From: an uncultured Brevibacillus sp.
Lineage (GTDB): Bacteria; Bacillota; Bacilli; Brevibacillales; Brevibacillaceae
Direction of reading: 5' to 3'
DNA length: 64,000 bases
Assembly: GCF_947502445.1 (NCBI RefSeq)
Contig: NZ_CANMZW010000021.1
Coordinates: 14,823-78,822 of the forward strand
In this document: positions 1 through 14,439 of the stretch, in pieces
Layout: each line of letters opens with the position of its first letter
Numbering within the stretch: the first letter of the stretch is position 1
The notes under the pieces: generated by a model
Databases searched by the model: none
Told to the model about the DNA's origin: nothing
What the model saw: only the letters and a program-made list of their open reading frames with translations
Position numbers and translations under genes: made by a program

Positions 1-78
1 GCGGCGGAGGCCCACCGCTATGTGGAGCAGGGCCACAAGAAAGGCAACGTGGTGTTAACCGTCCAGCAAGGTTTATAG
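1..78 (+). CDS. 3' end of an NAD(P)-dependent zinc-binding/quinone oxidoreductase (partial, runs off window)
   Basis: Frame 1 reads AAEAHRYVEQGHKKGNVVLTVQQGL*, matching the typical C-terminal EAHRYVExGHKxGNVV of MDR-family oxidoreductases. Confidence 0.65.
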   Translation, partial: AAEAHRYVEQGHKKGNVVLTVQQGL

Positions 79-150
79 GATTCGCTACTTTATCCTTGAA
101 AAGTTAGAATTAATACGTTTCGAAATCGAAAGACGAAGACTCCTTGTGCG

Positions 151-177
151 TTTAGCTATCGGGATCGATAGCGATAA
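151..177 (+). repeat. Putative recombination site S1 (cassette-boundary repeat)
   Basis: TTTAGCTATC-GGGATC-GATAGCGATAA; GCTATC/GATAGC inverted arms around 6 bp; near-identical to copies at 4100 and 5238. Confidence 0.7.
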
Positions 178-202
178 GCGGTTGCTTCGGCAGCCGTTTT
201 AT
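176..202 (+). terminator. Rho-independent terminator directly after site S1
   Basis: AAGCGGTTGC-TTCG-GCAGCCGTTT followed by T run. Confidence 0.75.
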
Positions 203-209
203 TATTTAT

Positions 210-238
210 TCCGCTAACAGCAGCTTCGTTTAAGAAGG
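210..238 (+). repeat. Degenerate putative site S2
   Basis: TTCCGCTAACAGCAGCTTCGTTAAGAAG; GCTAAC left arm, same position after a hairpin as S7 and S9. Confidence 0.4.
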
Positions 239-294
239 AATAAAAACTGAATAGGAAGAATATGTAATTTAGGTGCGGATCAATAGGAGGTTCA

Positions 295-609
295 ATGAAA
301 AAGCCTTTCTTGTTTGTATTTCTTTTAGTTTCAATTTTGGTCGGATGTGGTAGTGAATACGTTATTCTTTCTGGTGAAAGTGATGACTGGAAAGGAGAAT
401 ACTCAGCAAATATAGATGGTAATAGTGAAAATGGGAATTACCTTTTTAGTTTCAAAAGTGGAAACAATGATACTGAATTTAAGAACCTAGAGATTGTAAT
501 TAATGACGGTGAAACCTCCCAAAAGGAAAATAACCATAAAGGAGCAACCGTTAGAATATCAACTTCATGTTCTGGGTGTTCAGTAACAAAAAAAGATAAA
601 ATGGGATGA
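295..609 (+). CDS. Small lipoprotein, hypothetical
   Basis: RBS AGGAGG; basic N-terminus, hydrophobic stretch, lipobox LVGC; AT-rich. Confidence 0.75.
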   Translation: MKKPFLFVFLLVSILVGCGSEYVILSGESDDWKGEYSANIDGNSENGNYLFSFKSGNNDTEFKNLEIVINDGETSQKENNHKGATVRISTSCSGCSVTKKDKMG

Positions 610-663
610 CAAAAATGAAGTAACTTTTTATTTAAAGTGAGTCAAGTGCTATATAAAGGCTTG

Positions 664-690
664 TTCGATTAACGTATTCTCTAGTTCAAC
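664..690 (+). repeat. Putative site S3 just upstream of the recombinase
   Basis: TTCGATTAACGTATTCTCTAGTTCAAC fits TA-N10-TAG spacing of the repeat family. Confidence 0.55.
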
Positions 691-712
691 AAATGATTTC
701 GAAATACGTATT

Positions 713-763
713 AACCCCTCCCAAACATAGTGAAGCTAGTAGTAATTAGCCTTGGGAGGGGTT
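713..763 (+). promoter_or_regulatory. Stem-loop sequestering the recombinase ribosome-binding site
   Basis: Perfect 12-bp inverted repeat AACCCCTCCCAA (713-724) / TTGGGAGGGGTT (752-763); GGGAGG lies in the 3' arm; ATG at 771. Confidence 0.65.
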
Positions 764-770
764 TTGTTTT

Positions 771-1578
771 ATGAAATTGACTGATATCTGGACGTTGTAT
801 GAGGCCGATAAACGAATTCTGGGTTTTAGTCCGCACACTTTAAAAGCGTATACCCTTCAGTTTAAGGTACTGACTCGCGAGATTGGCAACTTAAATATCG
901 GAGAAGTACATTGGACTTGCTGAAAGAATACTTAGCAAAGCAGTCAGACCGGTTAAAGCCGAGCAGCATGGGACATCGTATACGGTTTATACGGTCCCTG
1001 TTTCGGTTTGCATTTGAAGAAGGACATATTATTAAAAATCCTACGCCTAAGCTAAGAGAACCAAAACTAGAAAAGAGGATCCCGAAGTTTTTAATTGAGG
1101 AAGATGTGATTAATCTTAAGATAGCCTGTGATTCCCTACGCGAGCGCGCACTCTTGGAGTTTTTATATTGTACTGGTTGTCGCGTAGGTGAAGTGCATAG
1201 GTTAGATATCGAAGACATCAACTGGGAGAGCTGCTCCGCGATTGTGCATAGTAAAGGCTCTAAGCAACGAGAAGTGTATTTTGCAACCGAATGTAAGGTC
1301 TGGTTAAAGAGATACCTCAAGAGTCGAGAGGATTCTTGCAAAGCCCTTTTTGTGACGGAGTCTTTTCCGCTGTTAAAAAGCTGGCAGCTCGTGGAGAGGT
1401 TGCAGTAAACGTTTATCCTCATCGTTTTCGTCATACGTATGCTTGTCACTTACTTGATAATGGTGCCCCGTTAGATTTTATTCAGGGTATGCTGGGTCAC
1501 GAGAAGGCTTCAACAACACAGATCTACGCGCAATTACGCGGTGAACGTCGCCGGGAATTATATAGGCGGTACTTTTAA
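771..1578 (+). pseudogene. XerD-like tyrosine recombinase/integrase, disrupted
   Basis: ATG 771 MKLTDIWTLYEADKRILGFSPHTLKAY; frameshift near 905-911 into DLLKEY..; catalytic motifs TGCRVGE, KGSK, HRFRH, LGHE, TQIY present; second frame break and apparent loss of about a dozen codons near 1365. Confidence 0.85.
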
Positions 1579-1591
1579 GAGCTGTGGCTCC

Positions 1592-1618
1592 CGCTGAACA
1601 AAGAGCAGTTTAACTTGG
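1592..1618 (+). repeat. Putative site S4 just downstream of the recombinase
   Basis: CGCTGAACAAAGAGCAGTTTAACTTGG; CA-N10-TAA variant of the repeat. Confidence 0.45.
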
Positions 1619-1735
1619 TATCATTTGTACGTAATAGGGACGAGGTGATCGTTTATATGGGGAATACGATAACTTTATGTGACAATTGTGATGAAAAAAT
1701 TGTTGAGTCATTCTCTATGTCAACTAGCACCAAAA

Positions 1736-2626
1736 TCAACCGTCCGACGGTGCGTACTTCCCCACGTCCGGCTCGAATGCCGCTCCGCTCGCCAGGTCCA
1801 GCTCCACATGGGTGGTTCCGCGATCGTCGGTCAGCACAATCATTCGCGACCCGACGACGGGAACGCGGTCGGCGCTGGTGCGCATGTGCGCTGAGACGAC
1901 AAGAGGGGCACTGTCAACGATATAATTTACCTCCACCGTGAACATTGGGAAATTAAAGAGCCAGCTATTAGTAAAGTTCACGGCGGTCAACGTCCCGGGG
2001 CATGACGAACCCTCCACGCGGAGTCGTTCGATGTCCGCCTGACGCCGTCGGGCGTGGGCGATAGAGCCGGGCAACCGCAGGATCGCGATGACGGCCCAGA
2101 GGGCGAAGCTAGCTCCGACGACGGCGCCGAGCTCTGGCGGGATCGTCGGCGATGTCGCTATGGCCTCGAGGTCAAAGGGGCGCGACAGGTCGCTTGTCAG
2201 CGTCCAGAGCAGGAGGATTCCCGCGATTGCTGCGAGTCCTCCTGCCACCGACAGCGTCGCGAACAGGCCGGCCACCCTGGTCTGTCCGAACTGCTCAATC
2301 GATCGCGAGTACACTCCGCCGGTCGTACCGATCGCGCCGAGCAGCAGCAAAACGGCGACGCCCACTGTGATCGGATGACCGAGGAGCATGCTGATCGCCG
2401 GTGTCGGCGCCATTCCGAGCAGTGCGCCGAACGGCACGGAGCCTGTCAGCGCCCACAGTGCAGCGGCTGTGAACAGCCACGGCATCAGCGGAGCCGCGCG
2501 TCCGACGCGATGTCCCGGCAGGAGCATAGTCATCCGTCCGTTCTTATCCGTGGTGGAGAACAGCGGCAGCGTCTCGATATGTTCTTGCTGCCTCTGCTTC
2601 TGTTGACCCTCCGCAGCATCCCTCAT
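1736..2626 (-). CDS. High-GC multi-pass membrane protein, hypothetical
   Basis: Four hydrophobic segments then a soluble tail; RBS GGAGGG 8 nt before ATG at 2626 (shorter than ORF-track start); conspicuously GC-rich versus flanks. Confidence 0.75.
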   Translation of the reverse strand: MRDAAEGQQKQRQQEHIETLPLFSTTDKNGRMTMLLPGHRVGRAAPLMPWLFTAAALWALTGSVPFGALLGMAPTPAISMLLGHPITVGVAVLLLLGAIGTTGGVYSRSIEQFGQTRVAGLFATLSVAGGLAAIAGILLLWTLTSDLSRPFDLEAIATSPTIPPELGAVVGASFALWAVIAILRLPGSIAHARRRQADIERLRVEGSSCPGTLTAVNFTNSWLFNFPMFTVEVNYIVDSAPLVVSAHMRTSADRVPVVGSRMIVLTDDRGTTHVELDLASGAAFEPDVGKYAPSDG

Positions 2627-2964
2627 TGGCATCGCCCTCCAGTTCAACTTCGTATTATCTTTGTACTCAGCCATGCACACCTTCACCCTCAATATTTCTT
2701 ATCTATATTTTACCACTATAAGATTGTCCGCTGTAAATACCCCTAAGTCGACATGCATTTCAATATGCGTGAGCAACGTACGATAGTGAACGAAACAAGC
2801 AGATGATCGCGCAGTAGCTGTTCTTTTCGCATTTTTCGCCGATAGTATCGTTAAACTGAACCTTACCAGTAAGTGACGGCGATAAAAATTGAGAGAAATG
2901 TCTTGAAGATGCCGTCGAACAGTATACGCGTTGTATCTCGTCCAAATGTTTGTCCAAGATCGCT

Positions 2965-3423
2965 TCAACTTTTTCCGATGAGGAGGGAATCCCTGTAGCT
3001 GTTAGCAATGTGACCGAGCGCAAAGCTCGCGGCGAAAATGAAAAAGAGGATAGAATGCAAAACGATAGAGGCAGCGAAGAAATAGAGGCAGGGAAACACG
3101 GCTATCGGAACTGGAATGCCAAGCATCGGGATTAGCAGACGAGCATAGCTTCTATCACTGCGGAGATACATGATCCAGTCTCTATAATAGAAGAGAAGCG
3201 CGGCCAGCATGACGATCAGTGATATCGTTTCATAGCTTCGTTCGGCGCGCATCGAATAAAACAAAGAAACGACCATGATGCCGAGCCTACCAATCGCTTC
3301 ACAAGTATTAAGGAGGAGGTTGATGGTTCGACGGACCGGCGGGCTTGTTGGCGGAAAGCGGACAAAAACGAGATTGGGCAACAGAATCATCAACGGGATA
3401 AGAAGACTGGTCGGATGAAGCAT
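2965..3423 (-). CDS. Hypothetical membrane protein
   Basis: RBS GGAGGT before ATG 3423; several hydrophobic helices. Confidence 0.65.
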   Translation of the reverse strand: MLHPTSLLIPLMILLPNLVFVRFPPTSPPVRRTINLLLNTCEAIGRLGIMVVSLFYSMRAERSYETISLIVMLAALLFYYRDWIMYLRSDRSYARLLIPMLGIPVPIAVFPCLYFFAASIVLHSILFFIFAASFALGHIANSYRDSLLIGKS

Positions 3424-3536
3424 GCGGACACCTCCTTCGTATGATCGTGTCATTATACACAACATTCGGAAGGAACTATCCGTGACTAATGTTGCAGAAA
3501 CACTGCGGAAACCACAAATATGCGAAAGAATTTTGT

Positions 3537-3562
3537 TACGTTAACGGGCAGAATAACTTAGC
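3537..3562 (+). repeat. Putative site S5
   Basis: TACGTTAACGGGCAGAATAACTTAGC, 77 nt upstream of the GNAT gene. Confidence 0.65.
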
Positions 3563-3639
3563 AATTAATTTTTCTTTGATTTGCAACTACCAACATTTGG
3601 AATAAACTCAATGTATCAGTCTGTTGGGAGTGTTGAAAG

Positions 3640-4107
3640 ATGAGTATTAGGCTTTGCCATGTTACAGAAACTAATTTTTGGGATGTCGTTAATCTAAAAT
3701 CTGATCCAGAACAAGAACAAAGGATACAGATATTTGAGCGTTGGGTAGGGTCTAATGCATTTTTTCTAGGAGCTTGTCAAGTTTATGGTTTTACCCCAAG
3801 AACTATATTTGATGACGAAATTTTAATAGGATTTACCTCATTTGGATATAGAAAAGAAAATGAAAGATATGAACTAATTAGTATGATGATAGGTCATCAA
3901 TTCCAAGGCAAAGGTTATGGAGTTCCAATAGTAACGGCGATTGTGAAAGAAATGGCAGATACATATAACTGTAAGGAAATCTTTTTAACTGTTATTCACG
4001 ATAATCAAAAGGCAATTCGTGTTTACGAGAAAGTTGGGTTTACACCGACTGGCGAAATTGAGCAGGGTCATCATCCTGAATTTGTCTATTGTCTGAAATT
4101 AAACTAA
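3640..4107 (+). CDS. GNAT family N-acetyltransferase (spermidine/spermine acetyltransferase-like)
   Basis: Motif A FQGKGYG, DNQKAIRVYEKVGF; AT-rich. Confidence 0.9.
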   Translation: MSIRLCHVTETNFWDVVNLKSDPEQEQRIQIFERWVGSNAFFLGACQVYGFTPRTIFDDEILIGFTSFGYRKENERYELISMMIGHQFQGKGYGVPIVTAIVKEMADTYNCKEIFLTVIHDNQKAIRVYEKVGFTPTGEIEQGHHPEFVYCLKLN

Positions 4108-4125
4108 CGGGTTCGATAGCGTAAC
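4100..4125 (+). repeat. Putative site S6, containing the GNAT stop codon
   Basis: TAAACTAACGGGTTCGATAGCGTAAC; TAA 4105-4107 is the stop codon. Confidence 0.75.
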
Positions 4126-4137
4126 GAAAACAAATAG

Positions 4138-4165
4138 AGGCTGTCGGTGTTCATGCCGGCAGCCT
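4138..4165. terminator. Hairpin between S6 and S7
   Basis: AGGCTGTCGG-N8-CCGGCAGCCT. Confidence 0.6.
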
Positions 4166-4167
4166 AT

Positions 4168-4194
4168 GCTTAACTAACGGGTAGGGTAGTTTGC
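4168..4194 (+). repeat. Putative site S7
   Basis: GCTTAACTAACGGGTAGGGTAGTTTGC. Confidence 0.75.
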
Positions 4195-4219
4195 TTAATA
4201 AGAATCTTTATCTTATTTT

Positions 4220-5149
4220 CTATAGTATGGCCTCTTTGGATAATGAGGCATGTACCCCGTTTACACCATTGACTAGCTGCGTTATACGCAAATCAACAAG
4301 AAGGCTTGACAAATTTAACGCCTCTTTACGCTCAAAATTATACAATTCCTGCATCCAATCAAGCATTCCCTCTAAGGCAATCATCGCTGCTTCATGTACT
4401 TCTTCATGGAATCCAAAGGTAATTCTCTTATGGGGAGTTTCTGCTCTTGGGAACGATAAACTTTGATCAATGACAGTGAAGGTTAGATCGACTAACTGCA
4501 TCGGGCATTCGAGAGCTGGACTGGATACCTCTCCATCACCTTGAACAGCATGACCGTCACCAACTGAAAAAAGACCACCTTCTACTGCGATGGGTAAGTA
4601 TAAAATGCTGCCAGGTACAAGTTCTTTACAATCAATATTCCCTCCACAGAACCTTGGAGGGTAAGTGGAGTGTATCCCTTCTTCATTTGGAGGCATGCCC
4701 ATAATACCCATAAAGGGCTTGAGCCGTATTTTATGCCCTTTGTTACTAATCCCTAAATTGTTGGAAGCATCTAACTCCCACATCAAAACATACTCTGGTC
4801 CCTCGTGAAGACCCAATCTTTTGTTAATAGTATTCGGGAATCCACCTCCGCTACTCCAGCCCCAATTGCCGGTCTTAATATCGTTTATACGAATAGCCAA
4901 GGTTTTTCCTTCTTTTGCTCCATTAATATAGATAGGTCCGATCAAGGCATGGCCGCTGTCTTGTGGATGATCTCTTTCGCAGAATTTCTCTCTTACACCG
5001 TCTAATTGAAATGGACCAGTATTCCACCCGCCGTCAATAGTCTCAAAGCGAACGGTGTCACCCGAATTGATTGATACTATTGGAGTGAACTCCTTTGAAA
5101 AAGAACCGTGCAGAGTTGAACGATCTGGGTGAATAAAAAACTCTGCCAT
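4220..5149 (-). CDS. Acetamidase/formamidase family protein
   Basis: GHALIGPIYINGAKEG, GGNIDCKEL, GGLFSVGDGHAVQGDGEV motifs; RBS GGAGGTG. Confidence 0.9.
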   Translation of the reverse strand: MAEFFIHPDRSTLHGSFSKEFTPIVSINSGDTVRFETIDGGWNTGPFQLDGVREKFCERDHPQDSGHALIGPIYINGAKEGKTLAIRINDIKTGNWGWSSGGGFPNTINKRLGLHEGPEYVLMWELDASNNLGISNKGHKIRLKPFMGIMGMPPNEEGIHSTYPPRFCGGNIDCKELVPGSILYLPIAVEGGLFSVGDGHAVQGDGEVSSPALECPMQLVDLTFTVIDQSLSFPRAETPHKRITFGFHEEVHEAAMIALEGMLDWMQELYNFERKEALNLSSLLVDLRITQLVNGVNGVHASLSKEAIL

Positions 5150-5237
5150 ATAGACACCTCCTAATTTGTATCCTATATTATTATATAACAGGGTATTTAT
5201 GGTAAGCGCACTGAGGTTGTGATTACTTTTCGAAATA

Positions 5238-5265
5238 TTGAGCTAACGGGGATCGATAGCGTAAT
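5238..5265 (+). repeat. Putative site S8
   Basis: TTGAGCTAACGGGGATCGATAGCGTAAT; near-identical to S1 and S6. Confidence 0.75.
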
Positions 5266-5292
5266 AAAACGGGTGCTACGGCATTCGTTTTT
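5266..5292 (+). terminator. Terminator hairpin between S8 and S9
   Basis: AAAACGGGTGC-TACG-GCATTCGTTTT. Confidence 0.7.
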
Positions 5293-5297
5293 GTATG

Positions 5298-5320
5298 TTA
5301 AGTTGACCGGCAGGATAAAT
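5298..5320 (+). repeat. Putative site S9 (variant)
   Basis: TTAAGTTGACCGGCAGGATAAAT; TG-N10-TAA variant. Confidence 0.5.
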
Positions 5321-5401
5321 TTTTTTGCCAACAGGATAAAGGCGGTAGAATCCAATGCGTTGGAAAAATTTTTAAAAAATTGTTCCGGAGGAGAATTCCG
5401 A

Positions 5402-6283
5402 TTGAGCGATTACTATTGGGATAGCAAAATCGATTATTTAAGCAAAACCAGAGGCCTGTATTACAATGATGATTATTTGGAATTCCTTGTTAAAAATGTT
5501 TGGAAGATGAGTCTTTCCCCAGTTCGAATAATTGATTTTGGATGTGGCTACGGATATTTGGGGACTAAGCTCTTACCATTACTTTCAGAAGGATCCACTT
5601 ACACAGGTGTGGATGCTGGATGTAAATTAATTGATCATGCCACGGATGTGTTCAAAGACGCCACTTTTAAGACCGAGTTTATTCAAGGCGATGTTAAACA
5701 ATTGGTTTTTGAACAAAAGTACGATGTTGTAGTTTGTCATGCATTCTTACTGCATGTGGAAAATCCAAAGGAGATTCTACAAAAGATGATAAGTTGTTTA
5801 GTAGATCGAGGAAGAATTATATGCTTTGAACCTCATTGGATCTCAGGCATGGCAAACTATTCTCTCTATGGATACGATTCTTCGGATGTAGTCCAGTTAG
5901 GGTTTCTTCAGAAATTATTTGAAAGAGACGCGCATCGTAGCGGTAAGGATGGGAATATCGGAATAAAAATACCTGTTTATTTAAGCCAATTAGGGGTTAA
6001 GCAAATCGAGTGCAGAGTCAGTGATAAAGTTAATTTCTTAGATCCCAATTCAGAGTTTGAGAAAACGAATGCTCTATTCAGCTCGTTAAAAGAAGATGGC
6101 TTTGGTGCAGACCCTGGGGAACAAGGGCAATTTATCTCGAATTTGATGAACCGCGGCGCAACCTATGAAGAGGCTCAGAATGAGTACAGATTAGAGTCGT
6201 TTCTGTCAAAAGCTTTTAAGAACGACACATTTCTGACCTATGCTGCAAATATGAAGATTACTACAGGGGTTATTGAGCGATGA
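5402..6283 (+). CDS. Class I SAM-dependent methyltransferase
   Basis: IIDFGCGYG motif I; true start probably TTG 5402 after GGAGGAG (ORF-track extension from 5219 runs through sites S8/S9). Confidence 0.85.
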   Translation: MSDYYWDSKIDYLSKTRGLYYNDDYLEFLVKNVWKMSLSPVRIIDFGCGYGYLGTKLLPLLSEGSTYTGVDAGCKLIDHATDVFKDATFKTEFIQGDVKQLVFEQKYDVVVCHAFLLHVENPKEILQKMISCLVDRGRIICFEPHWISGMANYSLYGYDSSDVVQLGFLQKLFERDAHRSGKDGNIGIKIPVYLSQLGVKQIECRVSDKVNFLDPNSEFEKTNALFSSLKEDGFGADPGEQGQFISNLMNRGATYEEAQNEYRLESFLSKAFKNDTFLTYAANMKITTGVIER

Positions 6284-6325
6284 AACCTTATAATTTCCAA
6301 ACTGGAAGCTAACCGTTGATGGCTT

Positions 6326-6357
6326 CATTTCGCTAAACGGGCAGCATTAGTGGAATG
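6326..6357 (+). repeat. Putative site S10
   Basis: CATTTCGCTAA-ACGGGCAGCA-TTAGTGGAATG; 11-bp arms matching at 9/11. Confidence 0.7.
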
Positions 6358-6467
6358 AAGGTTAACTGAGTCTTTAGCCTGAAATTCCGGCTTGCAGTCC
6401 TACTCATAATTAGATTGTTCAATTATTTGAATGGCGGTAAAGTATATGATAATCCCTTTGTAACATA

Positions 6468-7088
6468 TCAAATCTTCCTAGCAACAATGAAATATTCCTG
6501 AGAACTTTTCTTCAAGCAATCCGTTTCTACAATTGAAAAATTCCCTTCCTCAATTGTATCGACTAAATTGTGTATTTTAAATGATCTGATATTTGGTACT
6601 AAACCGACCCTACCTGCAAAGAATAACAAGTTTCTAAGAAATATCTTTTCTCCTACGCATGGTGTTGCAGAAATCAATAATCCTCCTGGCTTCAACAGTT
6701 CATTCATTCTTTGTAGAACGATATGTTCATCTTCCAACAAATGCAGAACATGAAAGACTAGGATGACATCAAATGAGCCTTTCTTATACCTTTCATCAAA
6801 AATGGTCGAATGAGCATAGTTTATATTTGCAATGTTTCGCTCTTTCGCCTTTTTTTCTGCAATTCCTATCATATTAGAAGATATATCAATCGCTTGAATC
6901 CCTTTCACATATTCTGCAATCTCATTTGATATCAATCCAGTCCCACAGCCATAATCCAAAACAATGTCGCTTATTTTGAGATGCGTTTTCGTTCTATTTA
7001 TTATATTGATGTAAGTCTGTTCATCCTTCATCTCTAACTGATCATATTTACTTGCTGTCTTGTCCCAATAACTTTCTGATTTATTCAT
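6468..7088 (-). CDS. Class I SAM-dependent methyltransferase
   Basis: VLDYGCGTG, FDVILVFHVLH, LLKPGG motifs. Confidence 0.9.
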   Translation of the reverse strand: MNKSESYWDKTASKYDQLEMKDEQTYINIINRTKTHLKISDIVLDYGCGTGLISNEIAEYVKGIQAIDISSNMIGIAEKKAKERNIANINYAHSTIFDERYKKGSFDVILVFHVLHLLEDEHIVLQRMNELLKPGGLLISATPCVGEKIFLRNLLFFAGRVGLVPNIRSFKIHNLVDTIEEGNFSIVETDCLKKSSQEYFIVARKI

Positions 7089-7121
7089 TTCAGTTTCACC
7101 TTCTTTTCTAGCACATTCATC

Positions 7122-7820
7122 TTAAATGGATAGAGAATCCTGCCCCGCCCGGTTGAATCCTTTAATGATTAGCCATATAGCCAAAACCAATTGTTGAAAG
7201 GCTATTGGAATGTTCAACGTCATGTAGGTTGCATCCAGACTGATGAAGCGAATCATAAATAATAAGCTTGCCAATATGGACAATGTAGCCCCAATGAGAC
7301 CCAAAAATGACAACCAAAGTGGGACTAATTTTATTTGGTAGAATATGCAATTAAACAAGAACATAGCCAAAACAAACGCCAGTGTTGTTGCCACATGGTT
7401 CACCAAATCACGTCCTTCCCGTAACAATCCACCCAGGGTCTGAAAATACGATGCATTCAGAGTACCAACTTTTGCAAATTCGTGGCTTAATGTCAGTAGC
7501 AACAGAAGAATGATTACACCCATAACAATGAACACATCTGCAATGATGCCGAAAGCAACAGAGCCAAGAGCTAAACCTTTCTTATGCTTACTTAAAATCG
7601 GATACATCAAAATCGGAATACCAACATACGCAACGACCATTAACAATTGGGAAAACGTTCCTATTAGTACCTGATTATCATTTGTAGAAGCCTGGACAAG
7701 GTAGTCTGCTCCATCTATAACAGGAACAACACTAAATATACCTGTAACCAACCCGGCTATTAATAACACCCCAGTAATGACTGCAGACCTTCTACCTGAA
7801 TTTGCACTCTTCCTCAACAT
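7122..7820 (-). CDS. DUF4386-like membrane protein
   Basis: Start MLRKSANSGRRSAVITGVLL after RBS GGAGGC; six or more TM helices; pattern typical of DUF4386. Confidence 0.7.
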   Translation of the reverse strand: MLRKSANSGRRSAVITGVLLIAGLVTGIFSVVPVIDGADYLVQASTNDNQVLIGTFSQLLMVVAYVGIPILMYPILSKHKKGLALGSVAFGIIADVFIVMGVIILLLLLTLSHEFAKVGTLNASYFQTLGGLLREGRDLVNHVATTLAFVLAMFLFNCIFYQIKLVPLWLSFLGLIGATLSILASLLFMIRFISLDATYMTLNIPIAFQQLVLAIWLIIKGFNRAGQDSLSI

Positions 7821-7951
7821 AATTAGCCTCCTTATAATACCTGCCCTTGACGGATGTTTGCGGGACGTGCGAATTAAGAGGTGGTCCAGTGGGTATGTCT
7901 GATTAATCAATACAGCCGTTGCAAATTTCACTCTCCAGTTTTATCCACGTT

Positions 7952-8167
7952 TTATTGCTCATCATATTGAAAGACCTCTTCGATGGACTTTCCGAAAACA
8001 CGCGCGATGCGAAAAGCCAGCTCCAATGAAGGTGAATAATTCCCCTTCTCGATAGCGACAATCGTTTGTCTGGTGACCCCAGCCTTATCTGCTAATTGCT
8101 GCTGGGTCATCTCGTTATGATGAAAGCGAAGATTCCGTATATGATTGCTGATTGCATCCTTTCCCAT
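7952..8167 (-). CDS. Xre/Cro helix-turn-helix transcriptional regulator
   Basis: MTQQQLADKAGVTRQTIVAIEKGNYSPSLELAFRIA. Confidence 0.92.
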   Translation of the reverse strand: MGKDAISNHIRNLRFHHNEMTQQQLADKAGVTRQTIVAIEKGNYSPSLELAFRIARVFGKSIEEVFQYDEQ

Positions 8168-8168
8168 G

Positions 8169-8615
8169 TTAAACTCCTTTTCTATAAAAGTATAATTGAG
8201 CGATACGTCCCAGTAGATCGGATAAGAAACCGAATAAGATCAACACAAGAAATGTTAAGTACGTTGGCAGATCCGTAACGAGCGGAACCATGGAGAATAT
8301 AAACCCGAGGAAAAACACATAAAGCGAAATCCGGTCTGCCTTCAACTCGATGATCTTATCCAACTCATCTTCAAAAGAAGGCTCATCTTCATTCGTAGCG
8401 ATCTTATTGAAGATGACAAACCCGATATGAATGATAACCTTCACTACAATCGACACCGGGAGCAGTACCAGAATGAAGGAACCCCAAAAACTGAAGTCGC
8501 TGGCCGAAGTGATGCTGCCTTCCTCGGCATTGTTTATCGCGTATAAAGTGTAGAGGGTAAAGATGAGTATACTGCTGATGATGGAAACAGAAATTTTTTT
8601 TTCTTGATAGGACAT
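8169..8615 (-). CDS. Small membrane protein (DUF2178-like), in operon with Xre regulator
   Basis: TM helices with EDELDKIIELKA motif; 1 nt from Xre start. Confidence 0.7.
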   Translation of the reverse strand: MSYQEKKISVSIISSILIFTLYTLYAINNAEEGSITSASDFSFWGSFILVLLPVSIVVKVIIHIGFVIFNKIATNEDEPSFEDELDKIIELKADRISLYVFFLGFIFSMVPLVTDLPTYLTFLVLILFGFLSDLLGRIAQLYFYRKGV

Positions 8616-8646
8616 ATTGACCTCCTAATTAAAGTATTATTCACCA

Positions 8647-8710
8647 AATGTAAAATAAACTATACATAATGTATTTAAAACTATTCTTTTTATCAACTTT
8701 ATTTTACATT
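8647..8710. promoter_or_regulatory. 13-bp perfect inverted repeat, likely Xre operator
   Basis: AATGTAAAATAAA (8647-8659) / TTTATTTTACATT (8698-8710) in the promoter of the membrane protein-Xre operon. Confidence 0.55.
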
Positions 8711-8770
8711 AGGCTGTACACTAGGTAGGGCGCTGCACGGTGAATCGTGCTATAAATAACAGGTACGTTG

Positions 8771-8797
8771 CTGAACTAACGGGCTCGACAGTTGAAA
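8771..8797 (+). repeat. Putative site S11
   Basis: CTGAACTAACGGGCTCGACAGTTGAAA, followed by a hairpin. Confidence 0.7.
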
Positions 8798-8812
8798 AAG
8801 ATAGACAAAGAA

Positions 8813-8837
8813 AGAGCCATCCCGTAAGGATGGCTCT
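8813..8837. terminator. Hairpin after S11
   Basis: AGAGCCATCC-CGTAA-GGATGGCTCT. Confidence 0.6.
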
Positions 8838-9014
8838 AAAACTTGCCGTTACTGACAGCGCGGAGAAGTCTACCACAAGTAATGGGTCATTTTGATCTTA
8901 ATGATTCTCATAGCTAACACCTACCGCAATTTACCCAATATTCCCCAATTCGTGATATGATTTTAAAGACAAGCGAATAAGCTTTAATAGAAAGGGATAT
9001 TAGGAGGGCGGCCA

Positions 9015-10883
9015 GTGGAATTCATTAAATTAAATTGTCCCAATTGTCAGGGGGACATTGAATATAAAGAAGGGAAGAAGTTCAAATGCCTGTATTGTGG
9101 AACTGAATTATTGTTGAAGGAGAATAACGTCTATTATGTTGACCAGACGATTAATCATTATTATGGAACCGCCCCTGCACAGGCACGACCAAAATCGAAC
9201 TCAAAGATCCTTCTTTTGCCGCTCATCATCATTTGTGTAGTAGTTGGATATTTCTTTTTGACCAACAATCAAACAGAGTACAGCATCCAAAAAGAGGTAC
9301 CTGTTCGAACGATGCCTGAAAGCGAAGTTCTCCTATTTTTCCTAAAGGATATTTTTGATAAAGGGGCAGCGATGCCAACAGAAGAGGAAATCGCAACGAT
9401 CCGCTATTTGTCTGCTTATCGTGAAAACGATCAGTGGCACATCGGCTACAGCTTTGATGATCCGTTTACGAATGAGCAAACTGAAATCTCCAACTATGTG
9501 ATTACGGATAAGCTATTGAATACACAAAGAATCGAACAAAAAGACTTTGAGGCATTTAGCGGGCTATCAGTGTTAAAACTGATGAATGAATACGACATTT
9601 CAAAAAGTGACCGAGTCAGCTTTCGACACTTACAAGGGTTGAAAAGCTATACAGGCGGCTTTAACGAATCATTTAGTTCGTTTGCACATTATTTTGGCGA
9701 TAAAGCAAAAATCGTAGAACTTTCCACACAAATTCGAAGTAATGAGGAAATGGCTTTATTATTACAGTTCCCGAATCTGCAGTCGCTTGAAATTTCGTAT
9801 GTCGATGAGTCTGTTACCAACTTCCATATCCTGAATCAGCTGTCATCATTAAAATCATTGTCTTTAACAATGATTAATGATTTGAAGTGGCTGTCTTCAT
9901 TAACTGGTTTAACGTCATTAACACTCGATAATAGTGATGCGACAGATTTCAGTTCGTTTTATGCGCTAAGTCAATTGCAAAAGTTAAAGCTTACGTTAGT
10001 GAGAAATTTAAAAACACTTGATTTTGTACAAAATATGCCAAACCTGCAGTCGCTTGATCTTGAAAATCTTGACATTACGAATTTAGAACTCCTGAGAAAT
10101 AAGCCATCATTGACGAAGCTGCGGTTAGCTTCTCTCTATCAAGTCGATTCTTTGGAGGTTGTGAATAGTCTGCCTTCCCTGACCGAATTGTCAATAACGG
10201 GTTTCGGTGGCACTGTATCACCGATCACAGCGCCAAATTTAAAGCAAGCGGAACTAAAAGACTCATTATTGCCAAAGTTAAAGGCGCCCGCTTTAAAATC
10301 GTTAACAGTTTACATACGCGGGTCGAGTGATAATCTGGATGGGGCAGATTTAGTGAAGTTTCCCCAGTTGGAACAGCTTTCAGTGATGGAGCGTGGAGAA
10401 GTTGTAGGCATTCGTTCTTTAAACCGTCTGCCGAATTTGCAAACATTAAATTTGGATGAGACGGCCTTCTACAGTGAAACGAGTGCATTATTCAATTTGC
10501 AGCATGTAAAAACGTTAAATTGCAATAAATGTTCGTTTCAATTAAATAGTGAGAAGCCTTTTGCGAATCATACGCTGGAACATTTAACGTTGAATAACCC
10601 ATCTTTTCGCGTAGGCAATGGAGAGTGGCTGCATGAAACAGATAAGATGATGCCTTACTTTGCTGATTTTACGGCTCTGCGTTCATTTACGATGCAGGAC
10701 ACCTCGCTTGGGTATTTAAGTTTTATGAAAAATTGGCAGCAAATTGAGGAGCTTCATTTGGAAAATAACGCGATTTCCAATATAGAGCCTTTACTGAAGC
10801 TGCCCAATTTAAAGAAGCTATATATTTTGGGGAATCAAGTGCAAAACAAATCTGTTGTTGGCAAGGGAGTTTTGATTTATTGA
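9015..10883 (+). CDS. Leucine-rich-repeat membrane protein with N-terminal zinc ribbon
   Basis: CPNC..CLYC, one TM helix (ILLLPLIIICVVVGYFFL), many LxxLxxLxL repeats; GTG start after GGAGGG. Confidence 0.85.
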   Translation: MEFIKLNCPNCQGDIEYKEGKKFKCLYCGTELLLKENNVYYVDQTINHYYGTAPAQARPKSNSKILLLPLIIICVVVGYFFLTNNQTEYSIQKEVPVRTMPESEVLLFFLKDIFDKGAAMPTEEEIATIRYLSAYRENDQWHIGYSFDDPFTNEQTEISNYVITDKLLNTQRIEQKDFEAFSGLSVLKLMNEYDISKSDRVSFRHLQGLKSYTGGFNESFSSFAHYFGDKAKIVELSTQIRSNEEMALLLQFPNLQSLEISYVDESVTNFHILNQLSSLKSLSLTMINDLKWLSSLTGLTSLTLDNSDATDFSSFYALSQLQKLKLTLVRNLKTLDFVQNMPNLQSLDLENLDITNLELLRNKPSLTKLRLASLYQVDSLEVVNSLPSLTELSITGFGGTVSPITAPNLKQAELKDSLLPKLKAPALKSLTVYIRGSSDNLDGADLVKFPQLEQLSVMERGEVVGIRSLNRLPNLQTLNLDETAFYSETSALFNLQHVKTLNCNKCSFQLNSEKPFANHTLEHLTLNNPSFRVGNGEWLHETDKMMPYFADFTALRSFTMQDTSLGYLSFMKNWQQIEELHLENNAISNIEPLLKLPNLKKLYILGNQVQNKSVVGKGVLIY

Positions 10884-11073
10884 GGTAAGGCTGGCAAAAA
10901 GCTCAAGTTCCATATGACTAGTAGAACGCTTCTGAAATAACGTTCATGTTCAACTATCACCTATAAGGGAGGATTATGCTCACATAGATCGACAACAAGT
11001 TCATTGGGAATTGGCGAATCGTTTTCGATGAAGAGGCCTAGGCCTTATTATGAATTGAGGGGGAGCTTGTTTC

Positions 11074-11910
11074 ATGCTTAAGTGGGATAGCGATATATGG
11101 GGAAAGCTGACAGGACCGTACAGTTCCGCAGACAACGTACCGGTGTTATTGCAGCAATTAATGCGGCAATACAGCCAGGAAATTTTTGACGACCTTTTTC
11201 AGGAGCACTTGTTCCATCAAAATACGATATATACAGCTACATATGCGGCAATGCCGTTTTTGGCACAAATAGCGTGTTCTACATCTGATGCAGAAGTGCG
11301 CAAAGAGCTGTTTATCAATTGCGGGGTAATCGAGGCAAGCCGTGACGAGCGCGATGGGGACCCATTTCCAGAATCTTGGGCTGAGCTGGTTGAAGAGGCA
11401 GGCAGCTCTGTCTGTACTGAATTGTATCGTGAATATTTAGAGGCGATCGGGAAGCTCAAGACGCTTACAAAGGAAGTATTCTCCTATGCAGCTGATGCTT
11501 CTATCGATGAGATGGAGAAACGTTATATTCTTGTCGCGGATGCCGCTTATCGGGGGTCGCATAGTGTTGCCAATATGCTGATGACTTTTATGAACGGTGA
11601 TGAGTATGTTGCTGTTTGTCCGGCTTGCACAGAAGATGTATTCATCTGGCCTCATGAAGATAATTCTGCAGAAATCCTTCAAGCCTTTGAAGAAGATCCC
11701 GTCTTTCACACTGACCAGGAAGCCCATATAATCGTTCCGGTCACGTCATTTGCAGATGAAGAAGTACGAGCATTAGCAGAGCGGGCGGAAGCGATCGGGG
11801 AGCAAACATTGGTTAGGCATCTGTATTATTTAGCGGGGGAAACAGTATGTCCATCCTGCCGTGAAAAAATTTCTGTTTGGCCGTCTTTACTTAGCACATT
11901 TACAATGTAG
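11074..11910 (+). CDS. Hypothetical protein with two CxxC pairs
   Basis: 278 aa ORF with RBS GGGAG; CPAC and CPSC; helical N-terminus with HQNTIYTATYAAMP. Confidence 0.75.
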   Translation: MLKWDSDIWGKLTGPYSSADNVPVLLQQLMRQYSQEIFDDLFQEHLFHQNTIYTATYAAMPFLAQIACSTSDAEVRKELFINCGVIEASRDERDGDPFPESWAELVEEAGSSVCTELYREYLEAIGKLKTLTKEVFSYAADASIDEMEKRYILVADAAYRGSHSVANMLMTFMNGDEYVAVCPACTEDVFIWPHEDNSAEILQAFEEDPVFHTDQEAHIIVPVTSFADEEVRALAERAEAIGEQTLVRHLYYLAGETVCPSCREKISVWPSLLSTFTM

Positions 11911-12042
11911 GGAGCAATTTATGGTGGAAAGTTAGGGTTACAGAACTGAACTTGTTAAGATGCCAAAGTTGTTTTGGAGTGGGCTGTCTAGAATGGCGGT
12001 TTGACTGGGAAGGTCTTGGAAGGTTATCTGAAAGTATTTTGT

Positions 12043-12132
12043 ATATTTAAGGACTTGTACGGGAGCCTATGGGATTTGCTAGAGCTAAAAGATGATCATC
12101 CAATCTCCAGTAGGAAAAAGTTTAAGCCCTAG
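12043..12132 (+). pseudogene. C-terminal fragment of a VOC/glyoxalase gene
   Basis: Reads IFKDLYGSLWDLLELKDDHPISSRKKFKP*, the characteristic VOC C-terminus (F-x-D-L-Y-G-N-L-W-D-L); no intact 5' part. Confidence 0.55.
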
Positions 12133-12414
12133 ATTACCCTAAATCAATAGTTCCAGTCTTATAGTTTTCATAATGTCTGTTCCTTAACTTAAGTTCAATA
12201 ATAACCCCAGTATGCCGATAATTGGTCAATGCTGGGGTTGTTTTATTCTTGGGTCAGAATCTCTAAAAGCAAAAGGCGACAGTATTGTCTAACGATAAAA
12301 AGCATCTAATTTTAGTCAGAAAATTCCACCATTTCCTATAGTTAAGCTGACTAGTCCACGATTCTTCTCATGTCATACGATACTATAACGTTTATTACAA
12401 GGAGAGGGTATCGA

Positions 12415-14439
12415 ATGCCAAATGGTTGCAACCAAATCGCAAGCGGGCTGTGTTCCGAAGCGGAAGGGATAGACACCGTCGCGAGTGGTGAAGGTTCCCA
12501 CGCCGAGGGAGTTACCACCACAGCCAGCGGTAAAGGATCGCATGCGGAAGGATTCAAAACTTCGGCAAGCAATTTCGGCGCTCACGCAGAAGGGATCGGA
12601 GGAACTGCAAGCGGACTTGCGGCTCATGCGGAAGGATTCAACACGACAGCAAGTGGAGATGAGTCACATGCGGAAGGGAAAGGGACGGTCGCAAGCGGAC
12701 TAATTTCCCATACAGAGGGTCTCCTTACAACAGCAACGCAACTAGCAGCCCATGCGGAAGGGATGTCTACGGCGGCGAGAGGAATCGCTTCACATGCGGA
12801 AGGAGATAGCACACAGGCACAAGCGGATCATTCCCATGCCGAGGGTTTTTCTACTATCGCCAGTGGACTGAATTCTCATGCTGAAGGGGAAGGAAGCATT
12901 TCTAGTGGAAGAGCCTCCCACGCAGAGGGTGCTAGGACAATTGCCAGTGGACTTGCAGCCCATGCAGAGGGTAATAGGGCAATTGCCAGTGGATTTGCAG
13001 CCCATGCGGAGGGTCTTTTTACAGTTGCAAGCGGAAGTTTTTCTCATGCCGAGGGTTCTAATACAGAGGCCAGTGGAATAGCATCCCATGCGGAGGGATC
13101 TGGTACAGAGGCTAGTCAATTTGCATCACATGCGGAAGGCTCTGCGACCGAGGCTAGTGGAATAGCATCCCATGCGGAGGGTGAACTCACAGAAGCTAGT
13201 GGAAGGGCATCTCAAGCCGAAGGTGCTTCTTCAAACGCTATTGGATTTGCGGCGCATGCAGAGGGTAATTTCGCAGATGCCATCGGGAATTTCTCCCATG
13301 CGGAAGGTGATGGGACAGATGCCACTGGAATAGCGTCCCACGCAGAGGGCTCGGGCACAGTAGCAAGTGGAGATACGTCCCATGCGGAGGGTTTTCATTC
13401 AAATTCCATTGGATTTGCTGCGCATGCGGAGGGTAATTTCGCAGATGCCATCGGGAATTTCTCCCATGCGGAGGGTGATGGGACAGATGCTACTGGAATC
13501 GCATCCCACGCGGAGGGTTCTGGTACAGTGGCGAGTGGAGTTGTGTCGCATACGGAGGGGTTTCACACTGTGGCCAGCGCATTTGCGTCCCATGCAGAGG
13601 GTTCTGAGACAGAGGCCAGTGCATTTGCATCCCATGCAGAGGGTTCTAACACCCTTGCAGATGGAAACTTCTCGCATACGGAAGGTTTGGGTACTTGCGC
13701 TGGTACACTTGGAGGAGTGCATGTGATGGGGGTTAACGGCGCTCCCAACCTTGCAGCGGGAGATCTGCCGTTTTCCTGGTACCTCGTTAATGGAGCAGCT
13801 CCGTGTGACATTACAGGCGTCAAAGCCAAAATTTTAAATAACGGCAGTGCATGTTTCGACTCGACCGTCACGGCATCAGCATTCATCGTAGCCGTCGGAG
13901 CTTGCGATTTTGCCGAGATGTTTGAGACGGCGGATGGCCAGCCGATTGATGTAGGTTATTTTGTAACCTTTGACGGAGAAAGTGAGACCATCCGGAAGGC
14001 TACTTCCAGCGACAACTATATCCTGGGAGTGACCAGCTCCAATCCGGCGATTTTGGCGGATGTGGAAGATCCGGGGTGCAGCAAGTTTGTTCTCGATGAA
14101 TGGAGTCGGATTCAATACCACGAGGTCGTGATTCCGGCAGTAACCGATCGGGAAGGAAATATCCTCATTCCCGAGCGAACCGAGCAGAGACCCGTAATCA
14201 ATCCGTACTGGGATCCGAACCGGAAGTGTAAAACGCGGAAAGATATGCCCAACTGGGTGGCGGTCGGCCTCATCGGTAAATTGCTTCTTCGCGACGATGG
14301 AACATGCCGGGCGGGGGGATATTGCAAGCCAAATGACGAAGGAATGGCGACGGCTTCGGGTACAGGTACAGGTTATCGGGTAATGAAACGGACAGGAGAG
14401 AATCAAATTTTGATATTGCTTAATGGGAACTGGGTATAG
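12415..14439 (+). CDS. Repeat adhesin/tailspike-like protein with C-terminal peptidase G2-type autocleavage chaperone domain
   Basis: 30 copies of a 14-aa unit (xxASGxxSHAEG); C-terminal DFAEMFET..GYFVT..IRKA..ILGVTSSNPA..VGLIGKLLLRDDGTC; ATG 12415 after GGAGAGG. Confidence 0.85.
   Translation: MPNGCNQIASGLCSEAEGIDTVASGEGSHAEGVTTTASGKGSHAEGFKTSASNFGAHAEGIGGTASGLAAHAEGFNTTASGDESHAEGKGTVASGLISHTEGLLTTATQLAAHAEGMSTAARGIASHAEGDSTQAQADHSHAEGFSTIASGLNSHAEGEGSISSGRASHAEGARTIASGLAAHAEGNRAIASGFAAHAEGLFTVASGSFSHAEGSNTEASGIASHAEGSGTEASQFASHAEGSATEASGIASHAEGELTEASGRASQAEGASSNAIGFAAHAEGNFADAIGNFSHAEGDGTDATGIASHAEGSGTVASGDTSHAEGFHSNSIGFAAHAEGNFADAIGNFSHAEGDGTDATGIASHAEGSGTVASGVVSHTEGFHTVASAFASHAEGSETEASAFASHAEGSNTLADGNFSHTEGLGTCAGTLGGVHVMGVNGAPNLAAGDLPFSWYLVNGAAPCDITGVKAKILNNGSACFDSTVTASAFIVAVGACDFAEMFETADGQPIDVGYFVTFDGESETIRKATSSDNYILGVTSSNPAILADVEDPGCSKFVLDEWSRIQYHEVVIPAVTDREGNILIPERTEQRPVINPYWDPNRKCKTRKDMPNWVAVGLIGKLLLRDDGTCRAGGYCKPNDEGMATASGTGTGYRVMKRTGENQILILLNGNWV

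Follow-up and report, generated by a model that had tools for sequence, protein, structure and literature searches.

Integrons are commonly considered the only platform of bacteria dedicated to cassette capture and all but absent from Bacillota, where integron surveys reportedly found few or none. The 64,000-nucleotide stretch of Brevibacillus DNA analyzed here, called the window throughout, carries in its first 8,900 nucleotides a series of genes with short recombination sites in between, and at several boundaries a site of one type (A), a hairpin and a site of a second type (B) follow one another as a module. This A-hairpin-B module was found in more than 40 loci together with a conserved Xer-like recombinase of 280 amino acids and is the regular junction element of the whole family. 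The system is probably an integron-like capture array of soil bacilli (Brevibacillus and Paenibacillus) run by a Xer-type recombinase.

As in integrons, the arrays consist of compact, mostly single-gene cassettes of unrelated function; the family cargo includes GNATs, methyltransferases, DinB, MFS/TetR, pentapeptide and CPT-like proteins. The sites are co-oriented, a special site adjoins the recombinase gene (here of A type and about 90 nucleotides upstream of the ATG), the junctions are constant in architecture and variable in sequence, the inner arm bases read ..TAAC / GTTA.. and the stop codons of the cargo fall inside the site, in its left arm. In Paenibacillus hemerocallicola (locus L007) an array and its recombinase lie at positions 174-12259 between tnsA-, tnsB- and tnsC-like genes and tniQ, and the array is therefore the cargo of a Tn7-like transposon, just as the class 2 integron is carried in Tn7. 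Yet the system does not qualify as an integron, because its recombinase is Xer-like and not of the IntI family, its sites look like double-stranded cores (11-6/7-11) with no support for a folded attC, each junction has two sites with crossovers at both, where an integron has a single one at the 3' end of attC, and the recombinase gene forms a separate unit inside the array, pointing the same way as the cassettes and with cargo to either side of it. A further difference is that the hosts are Bacillota. Short gene-less units bounded by sites, perhaps holding only a regulatory signal, also occur among integron cassettes that lack an open reading frame (ORF), for example those bearing promoters (bioRxiv 10.1101/427781). 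The unit described here differs from them in its presence at nearly every junction, its own 5' site type, its conserved stem core and its length of 58-74 nucleotides.

The Xer/dif systems (IMEX elements, pdif modules, Tn6022) resemble the present one in having a Xer-branch recombinase, two 11-nucleotide inverted arms around a center of 6-7 bp, and gene modules bounded by sites. In the pdif modules of Acinetobacter plasmids the flanking sites face in opposite directions and recombination relies on host XerC/XerD, whereas the sites of our arrays are direct repeats, a dedicated single recombinase lies in the array, and two center types alternate with a hairpin between them. In engineered recombinase-mediated cassette exchange, heterospecific lox or FRT sites have common arms and different spacers, and like recombines with like. 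The arrays are similar in that cargo lies between two sites with common arms and different centers and order is preserved; they differ in that cassette exchange is man-made, while the selectivity proposed for the arrays is read from sequence and mixed A/B joints exist. Tn6022, with its XerC-like/dif-like site, is a different Xer-like/dif-like system (PMC11014353). A keyword and site-sequence search of open-access papers and bioRxiv found no description of the present system, although an earlier one may exist elsewhere, and no occurrence of the longer site strings.

Paired sites and array order in the recombinase family

About 45 loci around relatives of the recombinase were retrieved for comparison. 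In 387 kb of these loci, 97 A and 95 B sites lie on the strand of the recombinase and six of each on the opposite strand; 453 kb around unrelated Xer genes contained between 6 and 15 of each site type. From one site to the next, A is followed by B in 54 cases and B by A in 46, with 25 AA and nine BB transitions, many of which are due to degenerate partner sites missed by the scan. The distance from A to B is either 58-74 nucleotides, occupied by the hairpin, or about 950-980 nucleotides, where the recombinase gene occupies the same kind of slot; cargo never lies in these intervals. It fills the B-to-A intervals instead, with a median of 689 nucleotides. In P. hemerocallicola, seven boundaries in a row are A-hairpin-B.

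Family-wide counts of site and hairpin features are based on 40 strictly defined modules with an A-B spacing of 58-74 nucleotides. Their position frequencies reveal A and B as variants of the same site, composed of an 11-nucleotide left arm (RTTRARC-TAAC), a center of 6-7 bp and a right arm (GATAGYnnAAY in A, KWTAGTTnAAY in B) that forms an imperfect inverted repeat of the left one. A single conserved asymmetry, GATAG instead of GTTAG, confers polarity on the site. The left arm and the first GGG of the center are common to A and B, which differ in the rest of the center and in the right arm. The B center, GGGCAG, is invariant, but it was partly a selection criterion for B sites, which were picked with a tolerance of at most two mismatches in TAACGGGCAG. 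In Paenibacillus the A center reads GGG(N)NAC; the window and its Brevibacillus-like relatives have GGGWTC. A third flavor of site, I, has an A-type center and the right arm CTAGTTYAAC and stands about 90 nucleotides upstream of every recombinase start, with equivalents at this distance from the ATG in loci L005, L012, L013, L019 and L028. Behind the recombinase stop codon the family loci have a B site, GCTGAAC-TAAAGGGCAG. The A centers match the recombinase-proximal site of their own locus in 22% of cases versus 7% for the sites of other loci, a three-fold enrichment that is far from strict. By its arms and center, this layout matches that of the usual double-stranded core sites on which tyrosine recombinases act in Xer/dif systems. 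The original prediction, made from the window alone, had described the first sites of the modules as nearly identical and the second as a different site. A repeat search did group the A sites of the window (families D1, D2, D11 and D16), but the fixed-length consensus matches only at 5243, on account of a one-nucleotide indel (0.10 chance matches expected); the second site does differ in its central 6-7 bp and right arm, but is of the same family, with the left arm and TAAC-GGG in common.

More than 100 relatives of the recombinase, with 56-92% identity (most at least 70%) and nearly all 280 amino acids long, were found in Paenibacillus, Cohnella and soil metagenomes. The copy in the window is a pseudogene with two deletions relative to every soil-metagenome copy. 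Once repaired, it encodes 280 amino acids with all the catalytic residues present (..CRVGE.., HSKGSK, HRFRHT, GH, QIY), that is, the R..K..HxxR..H..Y set of Xer-branch tyrosine recombinases. The XerC, XerA and XerD models match it best, with 187-191 bits and E-values of 1e-55 to 1e-56, all under the equivalog cut-offs, while the integron-integrase model TIGR02249 gave 90.4 bits versus a cut-off of 265 and PRK15417 gave 50.8 versus 435. In a PDB search the nearest solved structures were a XerC-like protein (4a8e) and XerD (1a0p), and the match to IntI4 (2a3v) was limited to residues 208-267. By these comparisons the enzyme is Xer-like and falls outside the IntI family, which fits the 11-6-11 double-stranded site.

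Other features were noted around this gene and its relatives. A hairpin directly 5' of the recombinase ATG (713-763 in the window) is conserved in L005, L007, L011, L012, L019 and L028; it pairs the GGGAGGGG ribosome-binding site with CCCCTCCC, a T-run comes after it, and it probably blocks both read-through into the recombinase and its translation. A clade of recombinases at 55% identity (L039, L040) had no such sites. Recombinases about 50% identical are present on large Bacillaceae plasmids, namely pSHB26 of Peribacillus simplex (L094) and a plasmid of Bacillus mycoides (L095); these have B-like sites only, and the Peribacillus gene is flanked by TATC-GGGGCAG-GATAT and TAAC-GGGGCAG-GATAGTTGAAG. 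A related system may exist on such plasmids.

The modules are probably the standard cassette junctions of an integron-like array with a dedicated 280-amino acid Xer-type recombinase, in which paired, largely non-cross-reacting double-stranded sites surround a structured spacer. Each junction would contain two complete double-stranded core sites, A and B, flanking the hairpin. Because tyrosine recombinases need matching centers for complete exchange, the main partners of A would be other A sites and the A-type site adjoining the recombinase gene, and those of B would be other B sites. An excised circle would contain a single cargo gene and a single hairpin unit together with one site of each type, so that the order cargo-A-hairpin-B-cargo would maintain itself. 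In some of the modules, among them two or three of the window's four, the spacer hairpin would act as an intrinsic terminator insulating neighboring cassettes. Non-cross-reacting sites are favored because of the strict grammar of the arrays, the constant B center, the lineage-specific A center and the three-fold local match to the I site. Of this picture, site anatomy, linkage to the recombinase family, alternation and crossover positions were observed, while A/B selectivity, double-stranded exchange and the function of the hairpin are deduced.

The array of the window and its crossover points

The window contains three A-hairpin-B junctions (148-234, 4096-4200 and 5235-5324), all of which had been predicted, one decayed module (6304-6360) and one rearranged module (8768-8865). 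The last corresponds to a partial module proposed near 8771-8837: its A-like site (8768-8797) and hairpin (8813-8837) are present, and an inverted B-like site (8838-8865) comes next. The decayed module and the single sites at 663-690, 1593-1618, 3484-3506 and 3533-3564 had been overlooked. The intergenic sites are built on CTAACGGG, every one on the plus strand. When the window was scanned with a weight matrix trained on other loci only, the sites at 157, 3542, 4105, 4175, 5244 and 8777 scored 15-20.7 bits, all on the plus strand and within 9 kb, and nothing comparable was detected in the other 55 kb. Chance does not account for the recurrence of the sites. The gaps between A site and hairpin are 0, 12, 0 and 15 nucleotides in modules 1, 2, 3 and the partial one, respectively. 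The parts of the array are as follows:

148-177, plus strand: A site of module 1, with left arm GCGTTTAGC-TATC (148-160), center GGGATC (161-166) and right arm GATAGCGATAA (167-177)
178-197, plus strand: hairpin 1, GCGGTTGC-TTCG-GCAGCCGT, then a T-run that reaches 209; conforms to the canonical rule for intrinsic terminators on the plus strand
206-234, plus strand: B site of module 1, with left arm TTATTCCGC-TAAC, center AGCAG (219-223) and right arm CTTCGTTTAAG
235-662, plus strand: cargo cassette with the gene of a 104-amino acid lipoprotein (295-609); also in L037
663-690, plus strand: recombinase-proximal I site, GTTCGAT-TAAC, center GTATTCT, right arm CTAGTTCAAC; A-type, with a center that is divergent in the window
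713-763, plus strand: conserved hairpin before the recombinase; pairs the GGGAGGGG ribosome-binding site, then TTTTGTTTT
771-1578, plus strand: broken gene of the Xer-like tyrosine recombinase, lacking 1 nucleotide after 907 and 34 nucleotides after 1368
1593-1618, plus strand: damaged B site closing the recombinase unit, GCTGAAC-AAAGAGCAG (GCTGAAC-TAAAGGGCAG in relatives); contig break at 1605
1605-3501, no strand assigned: cargo cassette; two membrane ORFs on its minus strand, one of them with 57-60% GC
3484-3506, plus strand: B-like site, GAC-TAAT-GTTGCAG-AAAC; contigs of X1 and X4 break at 3501
3533-3564, plus strand: B site, TTGTTACGT-TAAC, center GGGCAG, right arm AATAACTTAGCAA; 18.3 bits
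3565-4108, plus strand: cargo cassette with a GNAT acetyltransferase gene (3640-4107), which takes its stop codon from the TAA of the A site in module 2
4096-4125, plus strand: A site of module 2, AAATTAAAC-TAAC, center GGGTTC, right arm GATAGCGTAAC
4138-4165, no strand assigned: hairpin 2, AGGCTGTCGG-TGTTCATG-CCGGCAGCCT, with a GGCWGCC core and no canonical T-run on either strand
4166-4200, plus strand: B site of module 2, ATGCTTAAC-TAAC, center GGGTAG with a tandem duplication of GGTAG (4179-4189), right arm TTTGCTTAATA
4201-5234, minus strand: cargo cassette with an acetamidase/formamidase-family gene (4220-5149)
5235-5265, plus strand: A site of module 3, ATATTGAGC-TAAC, center GGGGATC, right arm GATAGCGTAAT; 20.6 bits
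5266-5291, plus strand: hairpin 3, AAAACGGGTGC-TACG-GCATTCGTTTT, preceded by an A-tract and followed by a T-tract; conforms to the canonical rule for terminators
5295-5324, plus strand: B site of module 3, ATGTTAAGT-TGAC, center CGGCAG, right arm GATAAATTTTT
5325-6303, plus strand: cargo cassette with an S-adenosylmethionine-dependent methyltransferase; the reading frame ends at 6283
6304-6322, plus strand: decayed A-like site, GGAAGC-TAAC-CGTTGATGG, not followed by a hairpin; always with the methyltransferase cassette in X1-X4
6323-6360, plus strand: B site, CTTCATTTCGC-TAAAC, center GGGCAG, right arm CATTAGTGGAATGAAG
8768-8797, plus strand: A-like site of the partial module, TTGCTGAAC-TAAC, center GGGCTC, right arm GACAGTTGAAA; 20.7 bits
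8813-8837, minus strand: hairpin 4, AGAGCCATCC-loop-GGATGGCTCT; conforms to the canonical rule for terminators on the minus strand
8838-8865, minus strand: inverted B-like site, CTCCGCGCTGTCAG-TAAC-GGCAAG-TTTT; part, together with hairpin 4, of a conserved terminal element

Comparison with related strains and soil metagenomes revealed that synteny breaks inside both A and B sites; both types are therefore crossover points, and the hairpin unit is separable from either neighbor. At the B site of module 1 the window is 97.8% identical to Brevibacillus reuszeri (L004) up to GCTAACAGCAG (position 223) and unrelated beyond it. At the A site of this module, L037 is identical to the window from CGATAGCG through the lipoprotein cassette and differs in the upstream left arm and center. 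B-type sites break at 1605 and 3501 (X1, X4), and a contig of X1 matches the window exactly from 1605 to 3501, with different flanks. In module 2 the A site breaks at 4097/4109 in X2, X3 and X30, with a different upstream partner in each, and the B site has different left partners at 4190/4191 in X1 and X28; in isolate X30 an extra cassette of 1348 nucleotides is inserted between 4177 and 4198, splitting hairpin unit 2 from the acetamidase cassette. The A site of module 3 breaks at 5255 (X3, X4) or at 5267-5269 (X2, X28, X30), and beyond breaks at 6336/6337 the sequence continues into other right halves, three more of B type, one of A type and one of I type (X1-X4, X25, X28). The same boundaries are seen elsewhere in the family. 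A DUF2268 cassette found in L011 and L033 runs exactly from the B center to the next A left arm, with different neighbors on both sides, and the conserved recombinase units extend from an A-type site (20 left ends) to a B site (15 right ends), often ending exactly 6 nucleotides past TAAC.

The hairpin units do not simply travel with the upstream gene, and the second site is conserved, so that the refuting condition set by the original prediction does not hold. Unit 1 occurs in three neighbor combinations, between QOR and the lipoprotein in the window, between QOR and another gene in B. reuszeri, and between another gene and the lipoprotein in L037. After the GNAT and methyltransferase cassettes the next element is an A-hairpin unit in some genomes and a B site directly in others, as in X3, where the end of the GNAT gene is joined to a B-type center. 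Isolate X30 has the same cassettes in a different order on one 80-kb contig; in the related isolates, the cassettes of the window itself were seen to have been reshuffled recently. Contigs from two runs (X1 and X3) also break inside the GNAT gene, at TAACGGCG (window 3932), which may be a secondary site or merely the alignment end of a diverged homologue.

Alternative explanations and the role of the hairpins

Several observations weigh against the paired-site explanation. The A centers are heterogeneous within arrays, and the presumed selectivity between A and B is deduced solely from the center sequences. Right halves of A, B and I type are all found behind one left arm, so mixed exchanges do happen. 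The recombinase of this window is a pseudogene. Most of the break points come from assembled contigs and not from reads, although they recur in independent runs and in isolate genomes. As for the hairpins, similar numbers pass the terminator rule on the two strands (15/40 on the plus and 13/40 on the minus) though most of the cargo is on the plus strand, and a GGCWGCC core is kept in 22/40 stems, which points to a constraint other than, or additional to, termination.

Some of these observations would suit independent terminator mini-cassettes, which is close to what the original prediction proposed for the modules. In this account the sites would be equivalent, a one-strand exchange would occur at TAAC^GGG whatever the center, and the hairpin unit would come, go or change place by itself, in the manner of integron cassettes without an ORF. 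The crossover points that flank the unit with its three neighbor combinations, cargo occurring both with and without a unit after it, the variety of right halves joined to one left arm and A centers too heterogeneous for strict homology all speak for it. Free assortment, however, would scramble the order, and A and B alternate strongly with no cargo in the A-to-B intervals; tandem hairpin units were not seen, an identical pair of neighbors with and without the unit was not found, and the invariant B center implies that homology of the center matters. We consider this account unlikely. What stands of the predicted mini-cassettes is that they belong to a cassette array, that both of their sites are crossover points and that the unit is separable; what does not stand is their occasional nature, since they are the regular junction of the family and the recombinase gene occupies an equivalent interval.

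A, hairpin and B could also form one composite site of about 90 bp, an imperfect palindrome that would fold as a single strand and be recognized as IntI recognizes attC. The left arm of A and the right arm of B would make the R box, the unlike centers the unpaired spacer, the right arm of A and the left arm of B the L box, and the GC hairpin the variable tip. The fold is geometrically possible, all four arms being mutually inverted repeats, and it would account for the constant architecture with a variable hairpin sequence, for spacers that fold far better than shuffles (a mean of -19.6 kcal/mol versus -10.0 in the modules of the family loci) and for cargo stop codons in the left arm, as in integron cassettes. 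But the arms showed no covariation beyond their consensus: the left arm of A against the reverse complement of the B right arm scored 5.42 (5.38 when permuted), the right arm of A against that of the B left arm scored 6.92 (6.56 when permuted), and neither whole-module folds nor four permutation tests of arm complementarity gave a further signal; in a per-position test no single position survived multiple testing. Only 6/40 minimum-energy folds pair the left arm of A with the right arm of B. Moreover, crossovers map to A and to B and not to one point, A-type and B-type sites about 970 nucleotides apart flank the recombinase gene and are both junctions, and the enzyme falls far below the integron-integrase cut-off. 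A folded composite site is therefore quite improbable, and we return to paired double-stranded sites as the preferred explanation.

The spacer hairpins had been described as unrelated in sequence and as terminators that insulate the cassettes. The first claim did not hold. Hairpins 1 and 2 of the window have GCAGCC in common and both belong to the group with a GGCWGCC-type stem core, found in 22/40 modules versus 2% of the background; six more modules have GAGCAG/CTGCTC. The second claim holds in part: the canonical rule is passed by hairpins 1 and 3 of the window on the plus strand and by hairpin 4 on the minus strand, but by hairpin 2 on neither, and in the family by only 15/40 on the plus and 13/40 on the minus strand. 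Termination is a plausible role for part of the hairpins, but it does not account for the conserved stem core. This core, GGCWGCC(G)/(C)GGCWGCC, resembles the B-site center (C/G)GGCAG on both strands.

That the modules are just ordinary gene terminators beside a dispersed REP- or MITE-like repeat with no role in recombination is very improbable. Hairpins 1 and 3 do resemble ordinary terminators, and hairpin 1 follows a plus-strand gene; but synteny breaks inside the sites in many independent genomes, the sites accompany one recombinase family only and only on its strand, module 3 adjoins the start and not the end of its upstream gene, and Rfam offers no match. A dispersed repeat of the REP/BIME or MITE kind does not fit, with no comparable site in the other 55 kb of the window and sites confined to the loci of the recombinase family. 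Finally, the proposal that A and B are the left and right (attL/attR) products of single integration events, suggested by two subtypes recurring in fixed order, has next to no probability, since the products of a single exchange would have a common center and different arms, whereas A and B have the same left arm and polarity and different centers, and both are themselves junctions with many partners.

State and setting of the window array

The array occupies a region (1-8900) of 37-42% GC, compared with 45-54% across most of the remainder of the window. It is filled with unrelated genes in both orientations: those for the lipoprotein, the frameshifted tyrosine recombinase, two membrane ORFs, the GNAT acetyltransferase, the acetamidase-family protein, two methyltransferases, a DUF4386 protein, and an XRE regulator with a membrane protein. 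No known RNA family accounts for the sites or hairpins, as an Rfam scan of positions 1-12000 gave no match with E up to 1. Exact-protein look-up gave no record for the GNAT and acetamidase proteins, and no Tn7-like genes were found downstream of the array. A look for excision joints among the raw reads of two 2026 WGS runs (X39, X40), from an unrelated organism, gave no reads. The exact A site occurred in the genome collection in two Brevibacillus loci and in two presumed chance matches (a halomonad and an archaeal metagenome-assembled genome; about four expected by chance). This pattern is too strict for the Paenibacillus arrays, which were reached through the recombinase gene.

Judged by its sequence, the array looks frozen or inactive here, with a broken recombinase gene and three damaged sites: the B site after the recombinase is mutated, the center of the B site of module 2 has a 5-nucleotide duplication and the center of the I site is divergent. 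The 5 nucleotides of the GGTAG duplication (4179-4189) are absent in a metagenome contig of X1, and their insertion in the center probably inactivates the site.

Other observations concern the margins and single genes of the array. An element of about 55 nucleotides, in which a B-like site with the center GGCAAG is fused to a terminator hairpin, is present at 8813-8865 of the window, at 8905-8960 of L007 and at about 880-930 of L028. It is about 85% conserved between the window and P. hemerocallicola, is inverted in the window, and forms, with the A-like site at 8768, inverted repeats around hairpin 4; it may be the end of the array or the trace of an inversion. One of the minus-strand membrane ORFs (318 amino acids, 1736-2692) has 57-60% GC inside an array of 38-42% GC and no Pfam match, a composition that points to its capture from a donor rich in GC. 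The XRE regulator and the adjoining membrane-protein gene (7871-8617) are absent in isolate X30 and metagenome X25, which have TAGGAGG instead; this difference is not located at a recombination site. Beyond the array, the window diverges from three related isolates and a sediment metagenome after 11929, with no coverage up to 14000. The segment from 11930 to about 14500, specific to this genome, encodes a 689-amino acid protein with a Peptidase_G2 domain (12370-14439).

For the annotation of genomes, the site motif is a simple way to delimit such arrays. More broadly, and with some reserve, we think it possible that Paenibacillaceae, and perhaps Bacillaceae plasmids, have a means of cassette capture that arose independently of integrons, with a Xer-type enzyme, double-stranded sites, two non-cross-reacting sites and a hairpin at each junction, and an exchangeable recombinase gene, which may ride on Tn7-like transposons. 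If so, cargo would be excised, inserted or swapped with the grammar of the array kept, as a natural form of recombinase-mediated cassette exchange, and the two sites would be a natural orthogonal pair for one small recombinase, testable and potentially useful for cassette exchange. The arrays would also give access to an extensive, unexplored reservoir of mobile genes from soil, many of which are of the detoxification or resistance type. A second capture platform, with a Xer-type enzyme, double-stranded sites and two sites per junction, would mean that cassette capture evolved more than once.

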